NCBI GenBank assembly: GCA_030390025.1
Contig: CM059443.1
Span: 15,934,001-15,998,000 of the forward strand
Length of the DNA: 64,000 bases
Reading direction: 5' to 3'
Source: Squalus acanthias
Lineage: Eukaryota
The notes under the pieces are model-generated. The model ran no database searches. It saw nothing but the letters and a program-made list of their open reading frames with translations, and was not told the origin of the DNA. This document shows positions 9,601 to 45,600 of this stretch, piece by piece. Made by a program: the position numbers and the translations under genes. Positions within the stretch are counted from its first letter, which is position 1, and the number at the start of each line of letters is the position of its first letter.

Positions 9601-12600
9601 ATGGAGCACAATAATCAGCAGTGCACCTTTCTTTTTTAGTATGCTTCTAGGAATGTTCTCTGCCAACATGCGATTCCCTATCTGATGTAGGAGCGGGCAG
9701 TCACGACCTCAAGGTCTCTGCACCAGAAAGAATCAAGGTAAAAAGTTCTTGCAGACCAGCTAACCTTCCGGCCCTTCTGGCTTCTAAACTATCTTTGTGT
9801 TTCAGTAAACTGTCCAAAGACAGCATCATTCAAGTTGGTCGCTGAGAAGTATCTATGACATTTTATTATGTCTACGGCAATGGATTTCTCTTGTCAGAAA
9901 AAAAACTAGGACAGCCCATGATGAAGCCTTGTATACAAGTCATCTGCCCCCTGCATGTGTGAAGTTCTTAAAGGGATAGTGTCCTTAGATCATTGTTTCT
10001 TCTAGGATGATGCAAGTTCCTACCCTGAGTTGTGGAAAACAAATGAATTAGGATTGATTTTCTATTCAAAAACATTCAAGGATTTTTATTTTACATTAAG
10101 GAAGGTGGAAGACGACAGTTAAGCATAAGTGACATGCTTATACTTTAAATTGAGAATAGCACAGGATCTGCTTGAAGTTCTTTTCCTGCAGTTTCCTTCT
10201 CAAATTAATTGCTCAGCAGACATTATTGTGCTCTCCAACAAATTATGGGCTCAGGAAAACTCATCATTACTTATCACCTAACATCATGCTTACCACTTGC
10301 TGATGTTGCAGGAACAATAACTTCATCGTCATCATCGCTATCTTCCTCATTTGACTGTGTCACCCCCGACTCGGAGGCTATGCATGGAGGTTCTGGTTCC
10401 TGCTCAGAACGACTTCTCAATGCCAAAATACGGTGATGTAGTGCTGCATACAGCTGTCCAGCATCCTTTGAACTGGCCTGTGAGGAACCCAAAAGAGGCA
10501 GAACTTTAGGTTGCATAGCAGCTTTCTTGATTTAAACAACAAAATCTGTAAGAGAGTCAGGGCAATGGCCAGAAAACGGTGTAGTCAAATGATTTATCTG
10601 TTGTCATTTGAGAGTAACATGTAAATTATCATGATTTCTTATTGGTCTCGAGATTATGCCTTGGGATAAAACAGATTACTGTCTCCACTAAAATAGTGGA
10701 GGAAGGAATTTTAGTTTAACTATTAAGCGTTCATATGTTTGCATCCTATGGTGCAATTTTAGTGTCTTTGTGATCATTAAGCTGAGGAGTGGAATCATTT
10801 TCACGCAGTATTAGCATGGAGCATTCCCAGGCCAGGCATACCTGAGTAGATGCAAAGTAAAGTTCCCGTATCAAGCATTCTGAGACAGGTTTAGCATGAA
10901 TTAGGTACATTGTAAATCTCCCTCTGGATTGCCCAACAATATATCTTGTTCTAAGCCTCAAACCACCACCATTTACAGCACTAATATGACATTTCCTTTC
11001 ACCACAAAAATATTATTTGGCCTCTTAATGAGGCCACTAATTTAGTAACTGGGTTGAAATAACCAAACGAATTTTTATCACCTAATGTAAGTATGGTCTT
11101 CCTCAATCTTAGAAAGTGAGTGGCACTAGTAGGGGGAACCTCTGTCAGAATACGGGGCTGACAGAGTGGGGTGCACCCTCGGTGTCGACCTGCTTTTTTC
11201 CTCCTAGGTTCCTTGGTTGGTAGAGCCTGCTCCTCTTTTGCTTTTCCAGTATTTCCTGTTTCCATTTCTACCTGCCTCTGCACCCCACAGTCCCAGTTAT
11301 TCACATGTTTCTGTACCTTTTAACAGTCTTTAATTTCTCTCATAATGCAACCCATTATCTCTTATTAATATCACTGTCGCCATTTAATCATCTACTGTCT
11401 TCCATTAAGCACATTATAGGTCAGTCTACCTCAGTGTGTGTGTATGTGTTTGTGTGCCTGTGCGTCTATATGTGCGTGCGCGCTCGTGTGCCTTTGCGTC
11501 TGTATGTACACGTGCTTCTGTATGTGCACGCGCGCTCGTGTGTTTGTGTGCCTGTGCTTCTGTATGTGTACATGCGTTCGTGTGTGTTTGTGTGCCTGTG
11601 CTTCTGTATGTGTACGTGCGTTCGTGTGTGTTTGTGTGCCTGTGCTTCTGTATGTGTACGTGCGTTCGTGTGTTTGTGTGCCTGTATGCGCACGTGCGCG
11701 TGCTAGAGTGTGTGCTTGTATGTTGTGTTTTTCCCTCCGTCTTCCCACTGTTTTGTTCCTTTTTAAATCCTGTTCTGTTGAATGGTCTGCACCTGAAACG
11801 TTAACTTGTCTGTTCTCTCCACAGACGCTGATTGACCTGCTGAGTGTTTCCAACATTTTCTGTTTTTCTTTCCCCTTTCCTCCATTTGTTTCTCTGTCCT
11901 TTTCCACTCCTGTCTTTCCCTCTGTCCCCTTCCTCTTCTGTCTCTCCCTCTATCCCCTTCTATTTCTATCCGTCTGTCTCTCTACCCTCTTCCCCTTCTG
12001 CCTATCATTAGTTTAATTTGAAGACTCTGAAGCATGGCAATGGATTTCTGTGCATCAGACACCCAGCTGATTATAAAAAAAAGACTGAAGTTTGAGTTCT
12101 TATAATGATGAAGCACTACTGAGAGACATACCGATATGAGAAAGACTTTGACACCCTGGTCCTCGGCATCCATAGCTGTGATTCGAATACTCTTCTCACT
12201 GGCTTTATCAATTTGCATCTGGGCCCAGAGTTTGGTGTTAAGAATCAATCGAAGGCTGCCCTGAGTCCGCATCACTGCAACAAAGCAAGAAAAAGCACTG
12301 AAGGTATAAAGTCAATGTTGTAGCAAGCATTCATTGTTATATAACTATTAAAGCATTTTAAACAGCTGATAAGAGTGAAACAAATATTTATAATTCACCG
12401 ACGATGATAACTTATCACGTGTTTTGCAGATTGGCCTTAGCCAGCAAAATTACAACTAGGTATTTCACACTATTATGACCTGCAACAGTGAAGAGTGAAA
12501 GGGTCGATTACTTAGTGTAGATATCATCTTCCTCATACTTTGGATGGAGTTGTACTTCACTCAGTGGGAACTCAAAACCAGTAAAGAGACAGCCTCCTGG

Positions 12601-15600: not shown

Positions 15601-18600
15601 ATGACTGCACACAGGATACAGATCTGTCCCTCTCCTGTGGCTGAGTCTCCCACAAAATAAGGCTTTTCACTTCTACAAGCGAGTTATTTCACAAGTCCAA
15701 ATATACTGTGCTGCACAAGGAAACAAATCAGTAACACTCCTTGTCATTGCAAATTCTCCTCACCCCACCACCCCCCCACCTCCTCCTCACCAGCTGGAGT
15801 TGCTGAGGCCAATTGTAGGATTGCTCCAACTGAGATCAGCAAACTCAGGACAGGAAGGGTATCAAACATGGGACTTTGCTGGTGTGTGTGAATCATCAGT
15901 TCTGCATTGGGCAGTGCAGGTATCAACCATTCAATTAGGTCGTGTGTGTTTTGGGTACTTTAACGTACTTAAAAAAGAGAAAACAAAACAGGATTTCCAA
16001 CATCATTTTCTATGAGGTATCGCAGTGTTTAGAACACTAACATTTCTACTTATACAGACTATAAACTTCATTTACGAAAAGCAAATAACTATTAATTGCA
16101 GCAAGTGTCACAACGTAGCATCAGTAGTGTCAACGGATAGTATAGAAGATGGACTCATACCTAGTCTTGACTGCAAGGCTCCATCGTCAGCAGATGCCAT
16201 ATCGTTGAGTCTCAAGAGACCTCTTCCCCTCTCTACCCAGGATTGTGATGTCTTGTCAAACACAAATAGCTTGCATTGAATCTGAAATTAAACAAGAATA
16301 TTCTGAAGCCAAGAAATATTGCCCTCCCACAATTGCCAGGGAAACATCCACCCTATATGGAGTTATATTCAGCTATGAAAAGAAAAAAATTAAAGATGAT
16401 TATCATGAAACTTAAAAGCACACCTTTCACCAAACTGTTAAATTCACCAAAAATCTGTTTATAATAATTTCTCACTTGAAAAGTTGTCTTAGTTGAAGCG
16501 TCCTCTTGTTTGCTCTCCTTCCACTGGCCCTTCTGTAGTTCTCTCATTCTGGAGGCTCCTGAATGGAGCCTGACCTTCGCACTAGATGGCCTAGCTGATA
16601 TCAGAGTCATATCTGAGGCATTCTGAGCGGTGACCGATATCTTTCACCAATGCAGTAGTGCACTGAATTGGAGAACCGCACAGCGAGCTCCTGATCTTAG
16701 CTATGCCACCAGAGCAAAGTAAAGTAGAAGGCAAGTGCAAGAAGCACGGAGAAAAATCATTATATTACCTAACTTTCTCATTTTTTGAATGCAGTTCCAC
16801 TTTTATGTACAAATGACTATAGTCATCCAAAAGGGTTGTGTGGGGCCAAGATATACAGCGTCCCTTTAAGAAGTTGACACTACACAGCATCCATGTTAAG
16901 CACACACATCTTCCTTAGCCCCACTGTTTTTATGGCCTCATTCTATTTATGTATCTCATTTGAAGGAAGCAACAGGAGGACAGACGGAATTGGTAGAATA
17001 AGAAAAACACATGAACATAGCTTTAAGTCAAATGGGCAAGTATGGAGGTAGCTTTGTTTATGGAATTCAAACTACATTCAAAGAAGGCAGGTCATACCAA
17101 ATGTAGGTTACCTAATACTATTTCCTCACTCTTTCAGTCTCTATAACATATTAAAATTCTTACCTAGGCCTCTTGTTACATTGAGATGTGCTATGTATAC
17201 ATTTCCTACGGAGATACCAATGTTAAAATGGTCACACTGGGCTGTTAGGCTTACCAGTTATGTTTCTCTGTGTCGTCAGTAGGTGGTGCTCTCATAATAC
17301 TTTTGATATTCATTTTATAACTTGCCTGTCATACCAGCACTTGGTACTGTGAAGCCTTGCCACAATTTCTGTAGAGCTCCATCTATTGTGAGTTATTGTG
17401 AATTCGACTACTTTTAAAATGTAAATATTAATTGCCGCCCTTTATATATTTGAAGATTTTATACTTTAACACCATACTCTTCTTCCTCTCGGCCAGCCTC
17501 TTTTGATAGCTCTTACTCACAGCACCATCCTAAAAATATTCATTACTGCATCTCAGCCCTGGTGTGGAATCTATACTTAAATTTTAAAAATCATCTTCTG
17601 CCTCCTGCAATGTCGAATCCAACCTGACCTGGCCCCACTCCTAGTGGCTCTTAATCTCAGCCTTCCCCCGGATGGAGAGAGAGATTGGGGTGAGCGAGAG
17701 AATGGGGCGAGCCAGAGAAAGGAGAGAGAGAGATTGGGGCAAGAGAAATATTGGTAACAGAAAAGAGAGGATTGGGTGGAAAAGGTGAGCAGGTTGGAAT
17801 ACTGAATTAGTGTAACGGACTGCAATGGCTGCCATGTGAACGCTCAATGGCTGAATTTATTATCCTGCCACCAGCCTTTAAAGTGGATGCTGTTCATGAA
17901 ACTAAAAAGGTATTTCCGAATGAGGGAAAAAGCCCTTGTGTAGCTGAAATGAGAAGTCGCACAACACCAGGTTATAGTCCAACAGTTTTATTTGAAATTA
18001 CAAGCTTTCGGAGCTCTGCTCCTTCGTCAGGTACAGTTCCCTCACTGTACCTGACGAAGGAGCAGAGCTCCGAAAGCTCGTAATTTCAAATAAAACTGTT
18101 GGACTATAACCTGGTGTTGTGCGACTTCTCATTTTTGTCCACCCCAGTCCAACACCGGCATCTCCGCATCATGGCCACTTGTGTAGCTGGGTTAGCTGAA
18201 GAGCATTAATGTCAAATGGCAGCTGTACTTTGGCCAGTGCTCTCTTCATCTCTCTTAAATACTTTTGGATGGGTCAACCAATGCTTAGTTTTAATATATC
18301 CAATAATATTTTGCCTAGTGTTTGCCATACTCAGATTTTATGAAAGGAAAAGATGGCAATGCATATAAAAACCTGCTTGCATACTGCAGGATGATCCCAG
18401 CGACCTTAGGCTCTGAGGATTCAAGAGTTTAAAAGTGTACTGAAATCAGCGAAGGTTACATGGATTTCTTGGATTTTGGTACTTCGGATATATACATTAA
18501 AGATCTACCAAATACTGCAAATTTCAGTAGCACTAAGTATTGAGTGTTGAGAGGGTCTTTCCTTAGTTCGGAGGGTGCTTTCAGGTTCCCACTGGTCTCT

Positions 18601-24600: not shown

Positions 24601-27600
24601 AGGCATCATTGAGGCACGTTTAAACCGCATGGACAAAGACACCGATCATTGCCAATGTCCACAGACAAGCAAACAATAAAACAGCACCCTGAGAACATCC
24701 AATCCTCATTTCTAAACAGAAGTGGCTGTATGTTAGCAGTAGCCCCCTACAGCCCTGCATGTTGTTTAAGTGTCAAGTACTTTACTAGTTTGAACTTCAC
24801 TATGCTATCTATTTAGAACACCTTGGTGGAAGTTGTGGGCTATTGTTGATTCTATATATTCAAATGGATTAAGCCACTTACTTTGCAGTGTTTTGCTTGA
24901 TGTACTGGAGAAAGTAGTTGGTTGCTGGCAATGTTTCTCCATCCGTAGAACTTTCCTTCACATCACTTGAAACGTCACAGCCCTCCACAATCTGCAACAC
25001 ATCACATATATAACAGGTATGCACAAGATAGAACATGGCACAGCACATATACAAGTTTCCAATACGATTCTCCACCAGTTACCTTTACCCATCTCTTGCT
25101 ACTCAGCTCTTGCCAAGTGTCATATTATAGATATGCAACAATAGATAGAAAAATGTAATCAAGGTGATTTTCATTTTCCAAATATTTATGTTATGGAGAC
25201 TTCAGAAGAAGCTGATGGCTACTGTGCAAAACTGGTATCAAACCTTGGGCTATTATATTCTATGAAACATTTTTTATAAGAACAAAAGAATTTTTAGGAA
25301 CAGAAAATCCTAACAAACCCACCCTTTTTCTTAGAACAACCCCACTTTCTCACCATATCCCTCAAGATTGCTTCCTTCAATGAAACCTCCCATATAACTT
25401 ATCAAAGGATGGGAGAAGGGTGGAGCATAAACACTGGCATAGACCTGTTGTGCCAAATGGCTGTACATTCTATGTAAGTCTATTACACTTTGAATCAAAA
25501 AGATCTTCCTTCATACTTTTAACACTCATGTCCCCTAGTATTTGAACTTTTTGCTCTAGTGAACAATTTGCCAGGGGCAATTTTGTTAGTTCTCTGCATT
25601 ATCTGGAAAACTTTATTGAGTCACCTCAAAGTCTCTTCAAAGAAAACAAGCCTAACTGCCTTAACCTTGCCTCATAATTTAACTTTTAGATATCAAGAAT
25701 CATAATCATAGTTTTCATCTGCACAAATTCAAGGACAAAATATCCGTCATATGATTTAACAAGACTTACCTTCCACCTAGAAGCTACAGGCTTTTAAAAC
25801 TCGAGTTTGTTGTCACCTACTACGTGATTTACCTGCTCTCCTCCTCTTTTCAAATTGGTAGTGTCTTGCTTGATCAGCAACCTCTCTCCATGCAACTGGC
25901 ACCTGTTTTTTTGCTGGAGGGGGGCCATCAGTCATAAATAGGTCACCCTTCTTTGGTTCATTACTTGCAACAGGACCTCCAACTCTCAAGCAGCAAAGGG
26001 AACAGTGTTCCCCGCATGTCTCCATTGTGCCACTGTGAACAATTAGTTCACTTTGCTACTACCACTACAATTTTCCCTTTTATGAGGAGCTGCAGTCTGT
26101 TATTAGCTGCCGCCTTGCCAAATGTTTCATCCCCTACCCAGTGTGCTTACAAGACAAACCCTCTGTGAAGCTTTTCTTGTGCTTGTAGTCTATTTAAATT
26201 AGGGGGGGGGGAAGGACTCGCATCACAAAATTCGGCAAGGCCCACTTATGCACTAAGGATGGGCGCGCACCTGTGTCACAGGCATGCGCAGCCCCAATTT
26301 TTCCAGAATCATATTATCATTTTAATAGATTACTGAAGGAAGTGTGAAACTCCTCCCTGGCTGTAACTGTACTGTACCATAACTCCTGTTGTGTTGTATA
26401 AGGTGCAAATTTCTTTGTGTGTCCGCTTTCTCAGCGGAGGCTTTACTACAAATTTCTGGAATTTGAACAAATTTCACAAAAGGACGCGAGAGTCGGTAAA
26501 AAGGCGCAGGAAAGATACACGCACAAAAAGCAAAAAAATGTGAGAAGTAAAATGAAAAAAACGCAACTACTCAAAACATAGAAATACAAAAAAGTTAAAG
26601 ACAGCCCAACATTCTGAGTGCAGGCTTTGCATTCTGACAAAAGGGTCAACATACGAAACATCAACTTGCTTTACCTTTACCCGAATGCTCACAAGCCTGC
26701 GGTGCATCCCCTTCTAAGAAAATGGGGAAGTTAGCTAAGGTTTGAATATAATATTTTCATGCTCCTTTGTTCTTTTAATACCTTCTCATTACCTCACTGA
26801 GCTGATCTTTGTATACCATCTTACAGTTGTCACCTCTTTCCAGCATTTCAAAAACACGTTTGCTGACCACTTAATTCATCATCTTATCTCTGACAAGGGT
26901 TACTATTTAAGATTCATGTTTTCTATCTGTTGTTCTCTTTCTCTCCTCTCACTTTTGTTTTGTTCAGTTCTTTTAACTTCCAAGTTTCTTCTTTTACAGA
27001 TGCTGACAGACTTGCTGTGCATTTACAGCTTTTTTTTAAAAACAGAATCATTAAAATTACAGTTAAGGAGGCCATTCGATACATCACACATGTGCCAGTT
27101 CTTGCTCTTCAACTGGAGTTATCTACTCTATTTCCTTGCAGTTTCTCTACATACTTTCAGAGTCTTCCATTTCAAATATTTATCCCATTGCCTTTCAAAT
27201 ATTATTGTCTGACTCAGTAACTACCTGTGGTAAAGAATTCCATGATCCAGTAACTGTGCAAAAATCTCTTCTAACCTGCCCCTACATTCTTCTAAAGATA
27301 ATGCTCCCTCTAGTCCTTTGTTACTCATTCGCCAACCACTAGAAACAATCTTTCATCGTGTGCCCTCTCAAATCCTTTCATTATTTTGATAATTTTCCCC
27401 ATTAATCTTCTCTATTCCAAGGATAAGTCGTCCTAATTTTTTGAGCAAGTTCTTCATAACTATAACCTCTCACCCTGGTATAATTCTACTGAACCTTCAC
27501 TGTACCCTTTCCATGGCTTTAATATCTTTCCTACAATGGGGTGTCCAGAACTGCATGCAATACGCCAAAGGTGGCCCAATCAATGTCTGTACAACTTCAA

Positions 27601-39600: not shown

Positions 39601-42600
39601 TCATGTGGTGTATTTGGATTTTCAGAAGGCATTCGATAAGATGCCACACAAGAGGTTATTAAACAAAATTAGGGCTCATGGGATGGGGGTAATATACTAG
39701 CATGGATTGAGGATTGGTTAACGGACAGAAAACAGAGAGTAGGAATAAACGGGTCATTTTCGGGTTGGCAGGCTGTAACTAGTCGGGTACCGCAAGGATC
39801 AGTACTTGGGCCTCAGCTATTCACAATCTACATCAATGATTTGGATGAGGGGACCAAATGTAATATATCCAAGTTTGCTGATGATACAAAGCTGGGTGGG
39901 AATGTAAATTGTGAGGAGGGTGCAAGGAGGCTTCAAGGGGATATAGACAGGCTAAGTGAGTGGGCAAGAACATGGCAAATGGAATATAATGTGGAGAAAT
40001 GTGAAGTTATCCACTTTGGTAGGAAAAATAGAAAAGCAGAGTATTTTTTTTTAAAATGGTGAGAGATTGGGAAATGTTGGTGTTCAGAGGGACCTGGGTG
40101 TCCTTGTACATGAATCACTGAAAGTTAACATGCAGGTACAGCAAGCAATAAGGAAAGCAAATGGTATGTTGGCCTTTATTACAAGAGGATTTGAGTATAA
40201 GAGTAAAGACATCTTACTGCAATTATATAGGGCCCTGGTGAGACCATACCTGGAGTAGTGTGTAGTTTTGGTCTCCTTACCTAAGGAAGGATATACTTGC
40301 CATAGAGGGAGTGCAACGAAGGTTCATCAGACTGGTTCCTGGGATGGGGGGATTGTCCTATGAGGAGAGATTGAGTAGACTAGGCCTATATTCTCTAGAG
40401 TTTAGAAGAATGAGAGGTGATCTCATTGAAACATGCAAAATTCTTACAGGGAGGATATTTCCCCTGGCTGGGGAGTCTAGAACCAGGGGTCACAGTCTCA
40501 GAATAAAGGGTCGGCCATTTAGGACTGAGATGAGGAGAAATTTCTTCACTCAGAGGGTGGTGAATCATTGGAATTCTCTGCCCCAGAGGGCTATGGAGGC
40601 TCAGTCATTGAGTATATTCAAGACAGAGAGCGATAGATTTAGAATATTAAGGGAATCAAGGGATATGGGGATAGTGCAGGAAAGTGGAGATGAGGTAGAA
40701 GATCAGCCATGATCTTATTGAATGGCGGAGCAGGCTCGAAGGGCCAAATGGCCTACTCCTGCTCCTATTTCTTATGTTCTTATTACAAAAGCTAGCATTA
40801 AGAGCACAAGATAGAAAAAAGTCACGGGGGGTATGGCTGAGGTGTTGTACCTTGATCATTCTGTAAGTGAGGAGAAACAGAAATCTTATCGGGCAGAATG
40901 GACTCTTGCACTACAGGAACAGACAATACTTGGCTATTAATGAACAACAAATCCATTTATAGCAACATAGCTACAATGTTGCGATAGCAAAATACTGCGG
41001 ATGCTGGAAATCCAAAATAACAACAGAAAACGCTGGAAAAACTCAGCAGGCCAGGCAACATCCGTGGAGAGAGAAACAGAGTTAACGTTTCAGGTCGAAA
41101 CCCTTCGTCGGAACTGAGAACAGAGCAGGAAATTAAACAGATAAAAATGCAAGGGGGAGGCTGGGGGGAGGAATAAAAGAACAAAAGGGATGGTCTATGG
41201 TAAGTAGAGACATTAAGAGATGCTCAAGGCAAGACGAGATGGTAATGGGACAGGTTAAGAAACAAAAGGTGAGGTGTGAAATGCTGGCAGAATGAGAGAC
41301 AGCTGCCGTGGGGGGAGAGAGAGAGGGAAAAAAAGGAAAAAGGCACGGACCAAAAGGGTGGATAAAATGTATACATATGTGGTAGGGGCTGGGGTTATGA
41401 TCTAAAATTGTTGAATTCTATATTGAGTCCGGAATGTTAATGGACTTCACCAAGAAACAGCCCCCAAGTCTGTGCGCAGATTATGTTTTGGCTAGTCCTG
41501 ATTATACCCAGGACTTCACACTCCACATGGATGTTTCAGACAGGAGTGTTGAGCCAAGTGAATAACTGAGGGGAGGGACACCGCATTGTTTCCATGAGCT
41601 TCAAGTTAATGCCACAGGAAATGGTGTACTCAGTGGTTAAAAATGATTGTGTCAGTGCTGTGTGGACATCACAAAGACCCCAATTGTTTGTGACCTATTC
41701 TGACCAAAATCCTTTTGCATCCTTAAACTAACATAACAAAAATGTGCTGCTGTTACAGTGGAACATAACCGTAGATGCATATAATATGGCCACCAGGAAA
41801 GAACAGTAAATGATAAACCAAACAGGCTATTGTTACAGAACAGTTGGCTCACATGGACATTATAATGTAGGAAACTTTTTGATGGAAAGGGGTGGTGGGA
41901 TGGAGTGTTCACATGGTAGGTTCAGTTAAAGGTGATGCTTCAGTTCATTTGATTTTATCCTTCCAGAACACTAATCCTGCAATCATCCATGACAGCATCT
42001 AGCCGTTTCCTATAATGAGTCCAATGTCTGGCCTCAACTGCCCTTCCTGGAAATCCATTTCAGCTGTTGATCACGCTCTATGAAAATATTTCATGATGTT
42101 TGGCCTAAATTTACTCTTTACAACCCTCAACCTGTCACCTCTTACTGCTTAACATAAATGAACATATTGTTATGGATTTCCTGTTAAGTATCTTACAGAC
42201 CTTTAGATGGTTCTCGATGAAATTTTTTTGACGGGCTGAAAGGACAATTTGTCAGTCCTTTCCTTTTGTACTTTGGATCAGTTACCGCATTATTTCTCAG
42301 GGCTGACAACCCCCTTATATCATGGTGACCGCTAATGTACACAGTATTCCAGATGTGGCCTGCCCAGGCCAATGCAGTTTTCACGTGACTTTTGGGATAT
42401 GAAGTTCCTTGATTTGGCCATCTACTAAAGCATCCTATTCACTTTGTTTATTGCTATTGCACTTTGCTTGGACATGATAGAGGATGAGTCTACACCAGTA
42501 ACTCTCTCAAATTACAGCTTGCCAAGTTCTAAAACATACATGAAGTAGATTGAGCTCCTATTTTTACTTCTGACATGAATAATTTCTGTGTAATTTCATA

Positions 42601-45600
42601 TTCTGCCCAATCGTTACCCTCTACATTCTCTTTAAATGCTCTGCATTTTTTTCTTGAATCTATTTTTTATTTTCTATTTTTGATCCATCTTGGAGAATTA
42701 ATTCCCTGCCTTTACTGCACAAGGTATGTATTTGCCCTACACAATATTTTTGAATATGACCCATTTATTGCCAACAGACTTATTCTTCATGAATACTCCC
42801 AGCCTATGTTACTAAACACAGGTCATATAACCTGAATACAAAAGCAAAATACTGCGGATGCTGAAAATCTGAAATAAAAACAGAAAATGCCGGAAATACT
42901 CAGCAGGTCAGGCAGCATCTGTGGAGAGCGAAACAGAGTTAACGTTTCAGGTCGATGACCCTTCGTCAGAACTTCATATAACCTGAAGTTTGCCTGCCTA
43001 AAGTTGTATGCGAGGGTTTTGTTATGTGCCTGTGCTGTTGTTGCAAGTGTGTGGCTTTGTCCATAGACTTTTAAAAAAGTGTGGCTGTTCAAGATTTGAA
43101 ACCAAAAAACACTTTAATTCCACGTTGAAATTGATGCGCAGCTATAACTGCTAATGACAGCTACAGTGTAATAACCAACTTCCATTTCCTGATCAACACT
43201 GATCGAGTCATCCATTGTTTCTATGGGCAACATGCAAATGAAGGTGCACTTACAATCAAAAATGCATGTTAAATAAGACGGGAAACTATGTTTGTTATTG
43301 GAACTGGTTAGTCTGCTTCAAGTGTGATATCATTAACCTCCGCTGCTGAATATTTCCAGATGTGATTCACTGAATTGCATATTACTTTATTATTAACTAT
43401 ATTTATTTATGAAGAATGATTGGCTGGATACTTAACTTCAAAGAACATTCATTTGATAAGAACAGATGAAGGGCTGTGCCTGAAACATTTTCCCTTTCTT
43501 TACAGATACTGCCTGACTTGCAGTTTCCAACATTTTCTGTTTCAGATTTGCAGCATCTGCAGTACTTTGTTTTGATTTTGATAAGAACAGGAACTTGCTG
43601 CAGCTCAGAAGCTGACCTCTGAATTCTCAGACTGGGTTCAACAGTGTGGACTTTGTAACGTATGGTTTGTGTTACATACATAACCGTTCAATTCCAAATG
43701 ACAGAAGGCGTATACTAGAGAGAGGAGGAAAAAGGGATTGTCGTTGCGGTATAATTATTAAAACTTTGCTGTTTGAAAGAGAGAGGACCGTAACTGTGCT
43801 TCTGGAGAAGTTATTGGAAAGTATAAATTAATCCCTTTATGGTCTTTGCTCATCAGCTTTCTGTTTAGTATTGCATCCTCAATATCTACTGAAGTCTGTT
43901 ATATGTCATTTTCCCCAATTAACTGTATATACATATTTTTAGTCACTTCAACCACTAAAAGCCTGATCTGCATTGATATTCTAACAATTTTATTGCACAG
44001 ATCACTCCAATTAGGATAATTGTTAAATCTACAGGCATGCACATCTGCAAGGGAAGAGTACAAAAAAGATATAACTTTGGATAATAGGGGACAAGAAAAG
44101 TGCACCTATAAGAACTACTAACAGATTGTTGAGAAACGGATCAATAAAAACCTTAAATTGTAATGAGATGCAATACTGAATGAACTATACAGACCAGGAA
44201 GGTTTCAGGTTCAATCTCTGGTGCTGAATTTGCCACACTCAGCTAGGAAAATGGTGAAAGTGGTACAACTGGCTTCATCTTTTCTGAGTAAATCAGCAAG
44301 AATTCCTATTCCTAATCAGTATTCACAGATCCTGGCTGGAAAACGTACACACATAGATGATGGGTAAGGACTGGATTAAGTCGGCTAAGATACGCATGGT
44401 CGAATACCCTGTGCCCATGCATGCTCACACAGTGCCCAATTGGCAAGATACTGGAGCCGTACCCCAGTGACTCATCAGTTTGAGGAGAAAACAATTGGTG
44501 GGGGGGGGGGATGTTGTTTGGGAAGAAAGTAATCTTATGTCCCCTGTTCACTTACAATTAGATTACACACTTGTGCCAGGCACACAGCCATCTCTATACA
44601 TCAGGCATCCTCACAAGTGAGATAGACAATTTATACCACACATCATTGCATATAACATCGAATCAGAGAATTGACAACATAAAAAATGGCTTCTTCTTCT
44701 TACAGTGGCATCAACATATCCAATTCAAAATCCATGCATCAATATAGTGCAAATTTAAATGCTCATGGAAGTAACACGATGGCTGCGTACGTAACAGCAG
44801 TATGGAGTGGGATCGTACAGGTTTAACTCTCATCTACTTTTCTGCCTCACCTATGTCAAACAGGGAGTGAGAACTGCAAGAATCCTTACTAGGTTACTGT
44901 TATATACTCCTATCTGCCAATAGATGACATCTGCAGGGCTATGGGAGCAGACCAACTGCCTATTCCTTTGGCTGCAAGTCCATGTGACCAGGCAGCTACA
45001 AATTTAACGTGGCCAACATGTAATATTAAAAAAATGCACAAGGATCGATGAGATAACAATTAACACAAAACCATAACTCAGTCACAACTTCACTTGAGAG
45101 TTATCAGGTCAGTCAACATTTAAGACATAAAAATGATGCTCCTGAGCTCATCATGTACACCATATCTATATTGTTGTTAGACGTTTACTCTTGTTTAGAT
45201 GCTCCAAATTCAATAAATTCCAATTGTTTCCAGCAGTGTTACATACCGTATGACTAATTGAGGCTGTAGAACTGTTGATAGATGGAGACTCTTTGTCTGA
45301 TGTGCTGTTCAGGGTTACAGAAGAGGCTGTGGTACCTTCCTCGCTTTGTTTGCTCACACCATTGGTGCCACTGCTGGCAACTGGAATATACATAAATAGG
45401 ATTGCAATTAGATTCAATTGTGCAGCTCTCATACAGTACTGGCTTTGGGTTACTTGAATAAGGACAGTTATCAGGAAGTGGATATAGCTGGAAGATAATG
45501 CTATAGAGGTATGCAGCATGTTCAGCGCTGCATTTCCAAATCACCCATTCATTTCAAAAGGCAGAATGTTGGCACATACAACAGAAACCATTCAAGCGAA

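Follow-up and report, generated by a model that had tools for sequence, protein, structure and literature searches.

A target-site-flanked hammerhead stub within RANBP3 as a pseudo-LTR piece of a Penelope-like element

Introduction

How did a 137-bp insertion that is little more than a minimal hammerhead ribozyme and a tail come to lie between perfect target-site duplications (TSDs), and is it a mobile family in its own right or a fragment of something larger? It stands in the window, the 64,000-nucleotide stretch of Squalus acanthias DNA analyzed here, and an earlier note had read it as a non-autonomous, retrozyme-like unit mobilized by Penelope-like elements (PLEs), or else as a solo pseudo-LTR (pLTR). 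We conclude that the insert is the hammerhead-plus-tail piece of an autonomous PLE's pLTR, its PLE identity being almost certain, and belongs to a known kind: solo pLTR pieces with a minimal hammerhead. Signed positions count along the minus strand from +1, the first base of helix I at window 42973.

Results and Discussion

Window sequence comparison confirmed the perfect 14-bp TSD: identical, non-extendable 14-mers at 42823-42836, at the element's 3' end, and at 42974-42987, at its 5' end (plus-strand coordinates), enclose 137 bp (42837-42973, minus strand). The 5' duplication abuts +1 with zero extra bases. Behind the predicted minimal type I hammerhead (42937-42973) follow a pLTR segment (42873-42936) reaching the first of two clusters of 3' ends (~+101..+105, a candidate first site of reverse transcriptase (RT) initiation) and a PLE "tail" of ~36 nt (42837-42872) reaching the second (+135..+137, a candidate second site), all on the minus strand.

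All the elements of a minimal type I hammerhead follow in order on the minus strand, as the earlier note had recognized: the helix I 5' strand (42973-42970), the CUGACGA core (42969-42963), a bulged A (42962), helix II (42961-42949), GAAA (42948-42945), an ACGU palindrome (42945-42942), the GUU cleavage triplet (+31..+33), the predicted cut between 42941 and 42940, and the helix I 3' strand AACU (42940-42937), the assignment being predicted from pairing and copy comparison. An exact 36-nt core matches the genome 5,477 times and the reversed control not once, and therefore the hammerhead match is not due to chance. Core, GUU triplet and helix I stand as first described, but helix II needs another register: RNAfold and the copies favor a bulged A12 followed by five pairs (13-25 to 17-21). 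The three-pair register first proposed is broken by the A13 subfamily, its pair 13-24 being kept in 40/57 copies and pair 13-25 in 55/57. Helix III is indeed a loopless palindrome, but its extent in the dimer is ACGU rather than AACGUU, the flanking A and U being core positions in hammerhead numbering.

The core is intact in the window copy and in 36/57 copies. Helix II pairs are kept in 50-57 of 57, and it is only subfamily variants that keep the fold, with pair 13-25 as G-U, A-U or G-C and a UUCG loop variant; copies decay neutrally with peaks at CpG, so the covariation check proposed at the outset does not inform on function. A search with Rfam at the gathering score gave no match in the window, and shuffled versions of the monomer fold just as stably (z -0.5), both as expected for a minimal hammerhead. 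When two monomers were cofolded, the lowest-energy structure was not the active dimer. Cleavage would require dimerization, and probably the assistance of a protein as well.

This architecture (intact core, helix I of 4-5 bp, a bulged base, helix II and a palindromic helix III) is that of the minimal type I hammerheads of metazoan PLEs (Cervera and De la Pena, 2014, PMC4209133), which share the short helix I, the unpaired base before helix II, the palindromic loopless helix III and pairs of copies on opposite strands. The first pair of helix II differs: it is G-C (G10.1-C11.1) in the published hammerheads described there, and here G-U in 38 and A-U in 17 of 57 copies, with G-C in a single copy of another subfamily. 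PLE motifs are mostly solo in that survey, "probably related to truncated PLEs", and they are likewise so here. Another repeat, with short inverted termini, has repeatedly inserted in the hammerhead palindrome (~+33), splitting copies (L153, L171, L382-L398).

We searched the 3.7-Gb genome for copies. An exact 37-mer anchor 3' of the hammerhead (+46..+82) has 13,338 matches, and 26 of the best 30 matches of the insert continue upstream into shared element sequence, comprising a pyrimidine-rich 3' UTR, a GIY-YIG endonuclease with CCHH, a cysteine linker and an RT with YIDD. Read as motifs in the copies, the parent's gene order is thus RT (YIDD), a linker CxxC finger and GIY-YIG with CCHH: a single ORF in which RT precedes a C-terminal GIY-YIG, as in endonuclease-bearing (EN+) PLEs. 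Pfam RVT_1 (E 0.0045) and GIY-YIG (E 0.009) were found in copies, both under the cut-off. A search with the N-terminal part of the ORF recovered partial tandems in which +1..+137 runs straight into the ORF start, so that in intact elements the tail continues into the ORF-start region; the element unit is ~3.2 kb, and the insert differs from two ORF-linked copies at 4-5 positions. The "solo pLTR" alternative of the earlier note, an insertion made by a PLE, was correct: the same 137 nt are positions +1..+137 of the pLTR and form the 3' end of the RT-endonuclease element.

Partial-tandem and inverted pLTRs, a 30-40 nt tail and TSDs of variable length are further EN+ PLE features present in this family. 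Elements of the Neptune/Nematis type share RT, a linker zinc finger and, at the C terminus, GIY-YIG, and EN+ PLEs share 5' truncation, variable TSDs and, in inverted pairs, a tail of 30-40 nt on one of the arms (PMC8557442, PMC3846280). Between RT and endonuclease the copies carry a zinc-finger-like C-x4-C-x2-C motif, and an extra motif of this kind is described for Neptune and Nematis (PMC8557442). The linker finger thus points to Neptune/Nematis, and because a recent preprint finds only Neptune and Poseidon in vertebrates (Li, Clavereau and Pollet, 2026) we prefer to read the parent as a putative Neptune-type PLE.

Its 3' ends cluster at ~+100..+105 and ~+134..+137 (231 ends), with the same places in other organisms' contigs, and head-to-head pairs combine one long and one short arm in 24/30 and 21/28 cases. 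The two clusters fit the two fixed internal RT starts that bound the tail in PAc, a Poseidon element of Anolis (Frangieh, 2024, PMC11167929). PAc, as described there, also uses uncut RNA as template and primes on both target strands, as appears to be the case here. It belongs to another clade, and its ORF starts inside the hammerhead; the long ORF of the present element appears to start near +173, behind a conserved stop. An ATG at +56, preceded by AG, starts a run of 30 codons that shares the main ORF's frame, the stop at its end being conserved in 14/15 copies (L189-L217), and pyrimidine-AG motifs resembling splice acceptors lie at +2, +55, +105 and +170 of the pLTR. The stretch from +56 to ~+173 may be an upstream ORF or an unrecognized intron.

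Is the insert nonetheless a retrozyme? Non-LTR retrozymes are by definition tandem, at least 2 consecutive units each holding a complete hammerhead (Li, Clavereau and Pollet, 2026). Such a tandem was absent among the best 30 matches, and the window copy is single. Copies starting at the edge (26) have no private substitution relative to long copies (40), and both sets carry both subfamily variants. Retrozymes share with the insert a non-coding nature, a type I hammerhead and a relation to PLE pLTRs, but they are tandem units with a sequence of their own and circular RNA (PMC7229834, PMC6155905; Li, Clavereau and Pollet, 2026), whereas the insert is one TSD-flanked piece identical to its parent's end. 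A single TSD-flanked unit and the lack of private sequence place the insert outside the retrozyme definition. The retrozyme-like unit of the earlier note is not supported: its 137 nt form the 3' end of thousands of longer, randomly truncated copies.

We mapped 5' ends in the first 90 of the 13,338 anchor matches, which after removal of two satellite-borne duplicates gave 88 arms; edge-starting copies were taken from the first 90 of 805 exact cores lacking the two upstream C's (of 6,528 genome-wide), 89 remaining after one duplicate was dropped. Samples are the first matches on three contigs (C1-C3) and represent exact-match, young copies, with two loci contributing both arms. Rows removed were L084 and L085 (satellite-borne repeats of L083), L257 (a duplicate of L256) and, for shared flanks, L333, L336 and L337.

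Among 70 arms at risk, 26 end at -1..+7 (0.041/nt) and 44 go on past +1. Further upstream, from -11 to -1000, the end rate is 0.0015-0.002/nt, so that the edge shows a roughly 20-fold excess (P ~1e-26), smeared over 9 nt; without inverted neighbors 16/55 arms end there. TSDs of 8-16 bp (mode 13-14) flank 63 of the 89 edge-starting copies. In most cases the duplication meets +1/+2, either over 0-4 nt of microhomology or across a few added bases that are often an inverted-tail stub. The check proposed at the outset, whether copies share their 5' end and carry TSDs, thus came out positive, but its counterpart, that random ends would mark mere truncated PLE copies, posed a false choice: the insert is both a PLE piece and a copy with a preferred end. 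A purely random truncation that happened to stop at helix I is barely credible here. It is the rule upstream in this family and in PLEs generally (PMC8557442), but the excess at -1..+7 refutes it for the family, leaving perhaps 1 in 20 edge copies that could be such.

The hotspot is a property of PLE copying and not of a separate family, as edge and long copies have no private base. A sharp hotspot at helix I that yields TSD-flanked solo pLTR stubs sets the present element apart from EN+ PLEs as described in PMC8557442 and PMC3846280; the rotifer solo pLTRs reported in the latter mostly lack TSDs and are attributed to recombination. In open-access full text we found no paper on this hotspot.

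Hammerhead self-cleavage followed by circularization, the retrozyme cycle, would place the ends elsewhere, and we regard it as a very improbable origin of the unit. The insert begins 33 nt before the predicted cut, and just 1 of 85 5' ends lies at +34. Counts at +34 and at a control position are polluted by small deletions and later insertions, and only inspected loci (30 and 20, respectively) were used; of 156 genome-wide candidates at +34 the 30 inspected were mostly such deletions or insertions, with true ends no more frequent than at the control position. Cleavage-defined ends are accordingly rejected, +34 being not enriched, in line with the uncut RNA that serves as template in PAc (PMC11167929). 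Cleavage and circles are what PMC4209133 proposes for its hammerheads, whereas the cDNAs seen here cross the uncut site and end 33 nt upstream. On the other side, two contig joints in another organism (H) land on +34, and at one locus (L305) a unit spanning +34..+343 recurs, its start lying at the predicted cut and an identical junction occurring twice. This rolling-type repeat, a single case here, is possibly a trace of cleavage in vivo and hints that cut RNA may be used now and then.

What fixes the edge at +1/+2 (42973-42972, minus strand)? A spliced-exon origin is rejected, the 89 edge copies having no common upstream exon or sequence. Four observations favor a putative transcription start. 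First, a G directly precedes the first templated base in 27/51 direct edge copies vs 8/34 upstream truncations (p 0.008). The excess is modest and is absent from inverted copies starting at +2 (2/11); among TSD-resolved copies only 6/16 non-target extras end in G. In another organism, G is the plurality letter next to the loose ends that 107 contigs show at +1. For L1, an untemplated G of this kind has been interpreted as the trace of a cap (PMC6425141). The window copy has no extra G before +1. Second and third, TTAAAA stands at -29..-31 in 26/30 long copies and a YYANWYY initiator at +1 in 29/30; the window copy lacks the TATA-like box at -31. Fourth, a second, more abundant hammerhead PLE family (40,661 exact 35-mer matches in the genome; L348-L377) has TATATA at -30..-33 of an initiator A that lies 3 nt before helix I, and 11/30 of its arms, counted by eye, start or join at -3..+8. 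That family has an AGCU palindrome and the same long and short tail arms.

Given the TATA-like box, the initiator, the G excess and the second family's pattern, we think it probable that +1/+2 is the start of a capped RNA and that the insert is a complete run-off copy of that RNA's first 137 nt. Against this stand the 44/70 arms that run past +1 and the ORF-linked 5' pLTRs, which stop at +1 in just 3/22 cases (1/19 in the best-match sample) vs 26/70; the full-length RNA therefore does not simply begin there, or transfer is efficient. In Drosophila virilis the mapped start lies ~120 nt before the end of the intron at which the hammerhead begins (PMC2377424, PMC4209133).

The same counts bear on a rival, which we consider rather unlikely: that RT, copying an RNA of greater length (tandem or circular), pauses or drops off at the leading edge of a folded or dimerized hammerhead or at splicing factors bound to the pyrimidine tract and AG before +3. 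Most copies do pass +1, and the hotspot is weaker in ORF-linked pLTRs. The bases preceding +3 also form a strong 3' splice acceptor, and the edge, like the end of the D. virilis intron (PMC4209133), falls at helix I and at an acceptor-like AG. However, RT would meet the structure at its 3' side (+37), where 5' ends are not enriched; the second family, which lacks the AG but has a textbook TATA and initiator, shows the hotspot too; and pausing yields no excess of G.

A further rival is a self-propagating non-autonomous family, SINE- or retrozyme-like, whose solo 137-nt units would be transcribed from an internal promoter and copied anew by the enzyme of the PLE. Copies starting at the edge make up between about a fifth and a third of the total, the D. 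virilis promoter is internal (PMC2377424), and A13 is commoner in edge copies (13/26 vs 9/39, p 0.017 uncorrected). We nevertheless hold this reading improbable: no position is private to edge copies, the window locus has no tandem, PAc needs RNA beyond the tail that solo copies lack (PMC11167929), and among the chimeric copies described below every junction differs, so no master was amplified.

The capped-start reading would translate into the following sequence of events. Pol II would start at the initiator that coincides with helix I, with the TATA-like box at -31; the RT-endonuclease would nick the target and start inside the RNA at +137 (or +101), copy the uncut ribozyme and run up to the cap, opposite which a C would often be added; and microhomology of 0-4 nt would serve to join the cDNA to the target, leaving in this case the 14-bp duplication. 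Copies extending past +1 would need strand transfer to a 3' pLTR, or a read-through tandem RNA. The resulting stub was probably dead on arrival, as it lacks the upstream box and any sequence behind the tail.

Template jumps are apparent in copies anchored at the ORF start. From the first 70 of 528 matches we obtained 67 non-redundant copies (among loci L279-L346), 33 of which are not long elements: their ORF-start piece ends at +221..+343 (for example L303, L338 and L342), and 31 of these 33 are joined directly to a pLTR piece, each by a different junction. Landing is strongly concentrated just behind the tail; take-off falls at -4..+1 in five, two with an extra G, and at -28..-250 in most others. 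None was found among the unbiased 3'-anchored copies, and chimeras are therefore rare overall (~2% by counts). These junctions show that RT jumps between the pLTR and the stretch immediately following the tail, which is what a single complex containing both would lead one to expect.

In LTR retroelements, minus-strand strong-stop DNA arises when synthesis begins internally and halts at the capped 5' end, and this short cDNA is then transferred to the 3' repeat. PLEs would work alike if the run-off reading holds; they differ in being target-primed, without tRNA primer or integrase, and the likeness is one of analogy only. We tentatively propose, as a possibility we do not hold to be the likelier outcome, that PLEs replicate in this strong-stop manner: the capped RNA would begin at helix I, RT would start 101 or 137 nt inside the 5' copy, run off at the cap and jump to the 3' pLTR, rebuilding the pseudo-LTR. 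Failed jumps would leave solo stubs, long/short head-to-head pairs and chimeras landing at +220..+345, and the hammerhead's main role would be to bring together a pair of RNAs, or a pair of RNA ends, in preparation for the jump, rather than template cleavage. A cDNA end that is fixed at the first base of the ribozyme and marked by a cap, together with frequent template jumps, would name the RNA start, and the strand-transfer model can be tested directly in the in vitro PLE assay that already exists. Annotators of such genomes are warned against taking hammerhead stubs with flanking TSDs for retrozymes or SINEs.

As to the host gene, a minus-strand frame at 16111-16287 holds the RANBP3 Ran-binding-domain exon (match to RanBP3, E 1.5e-21), and the insert sits in an intron upstream of it, sense to RANBP3 pre-mRNA as the earlier note had claimed. 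Minus-strand frames recognized as RANBP3-like by their motifs (62871, 50816, 30968, 22912, 21046 and 12311) flank the insert on both sides, which likewise makes it intronic and sense. A genome search with Pfam Ran_BP1 missed this RANBP3 gene, whose exons are short. The insert is one among many thousands of dead repeat fragments and is probably without effect on RANBP3.

Contigs of other organisms whose flanks differ by 0.7-4% (X17, X18, X20 and X1, compared over window 42500-43400) run from the flank to the element edge, and the insertion is therefore probably older than their split. A single contig, X20 (33 letters), satisfies the bridging rule of the search; an empty site was not seen among the 15 of 76 joints listed for these contigs.

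The window holds further relatives. Older, decayed pLTRs lie antisense to RANBP3 at 11772-11872, 43502-43573 and 26996-27034 (all plus strand). A longer copy of a sister subfamily (40986-~41400, minus strand) lies sense in the same intron, 1.9 kb downstream of the insert; its core is broken (CCGA), its palindrome and cut site are intact, and it could in principle pair with the copy at 42973 within the pre-mRNA.
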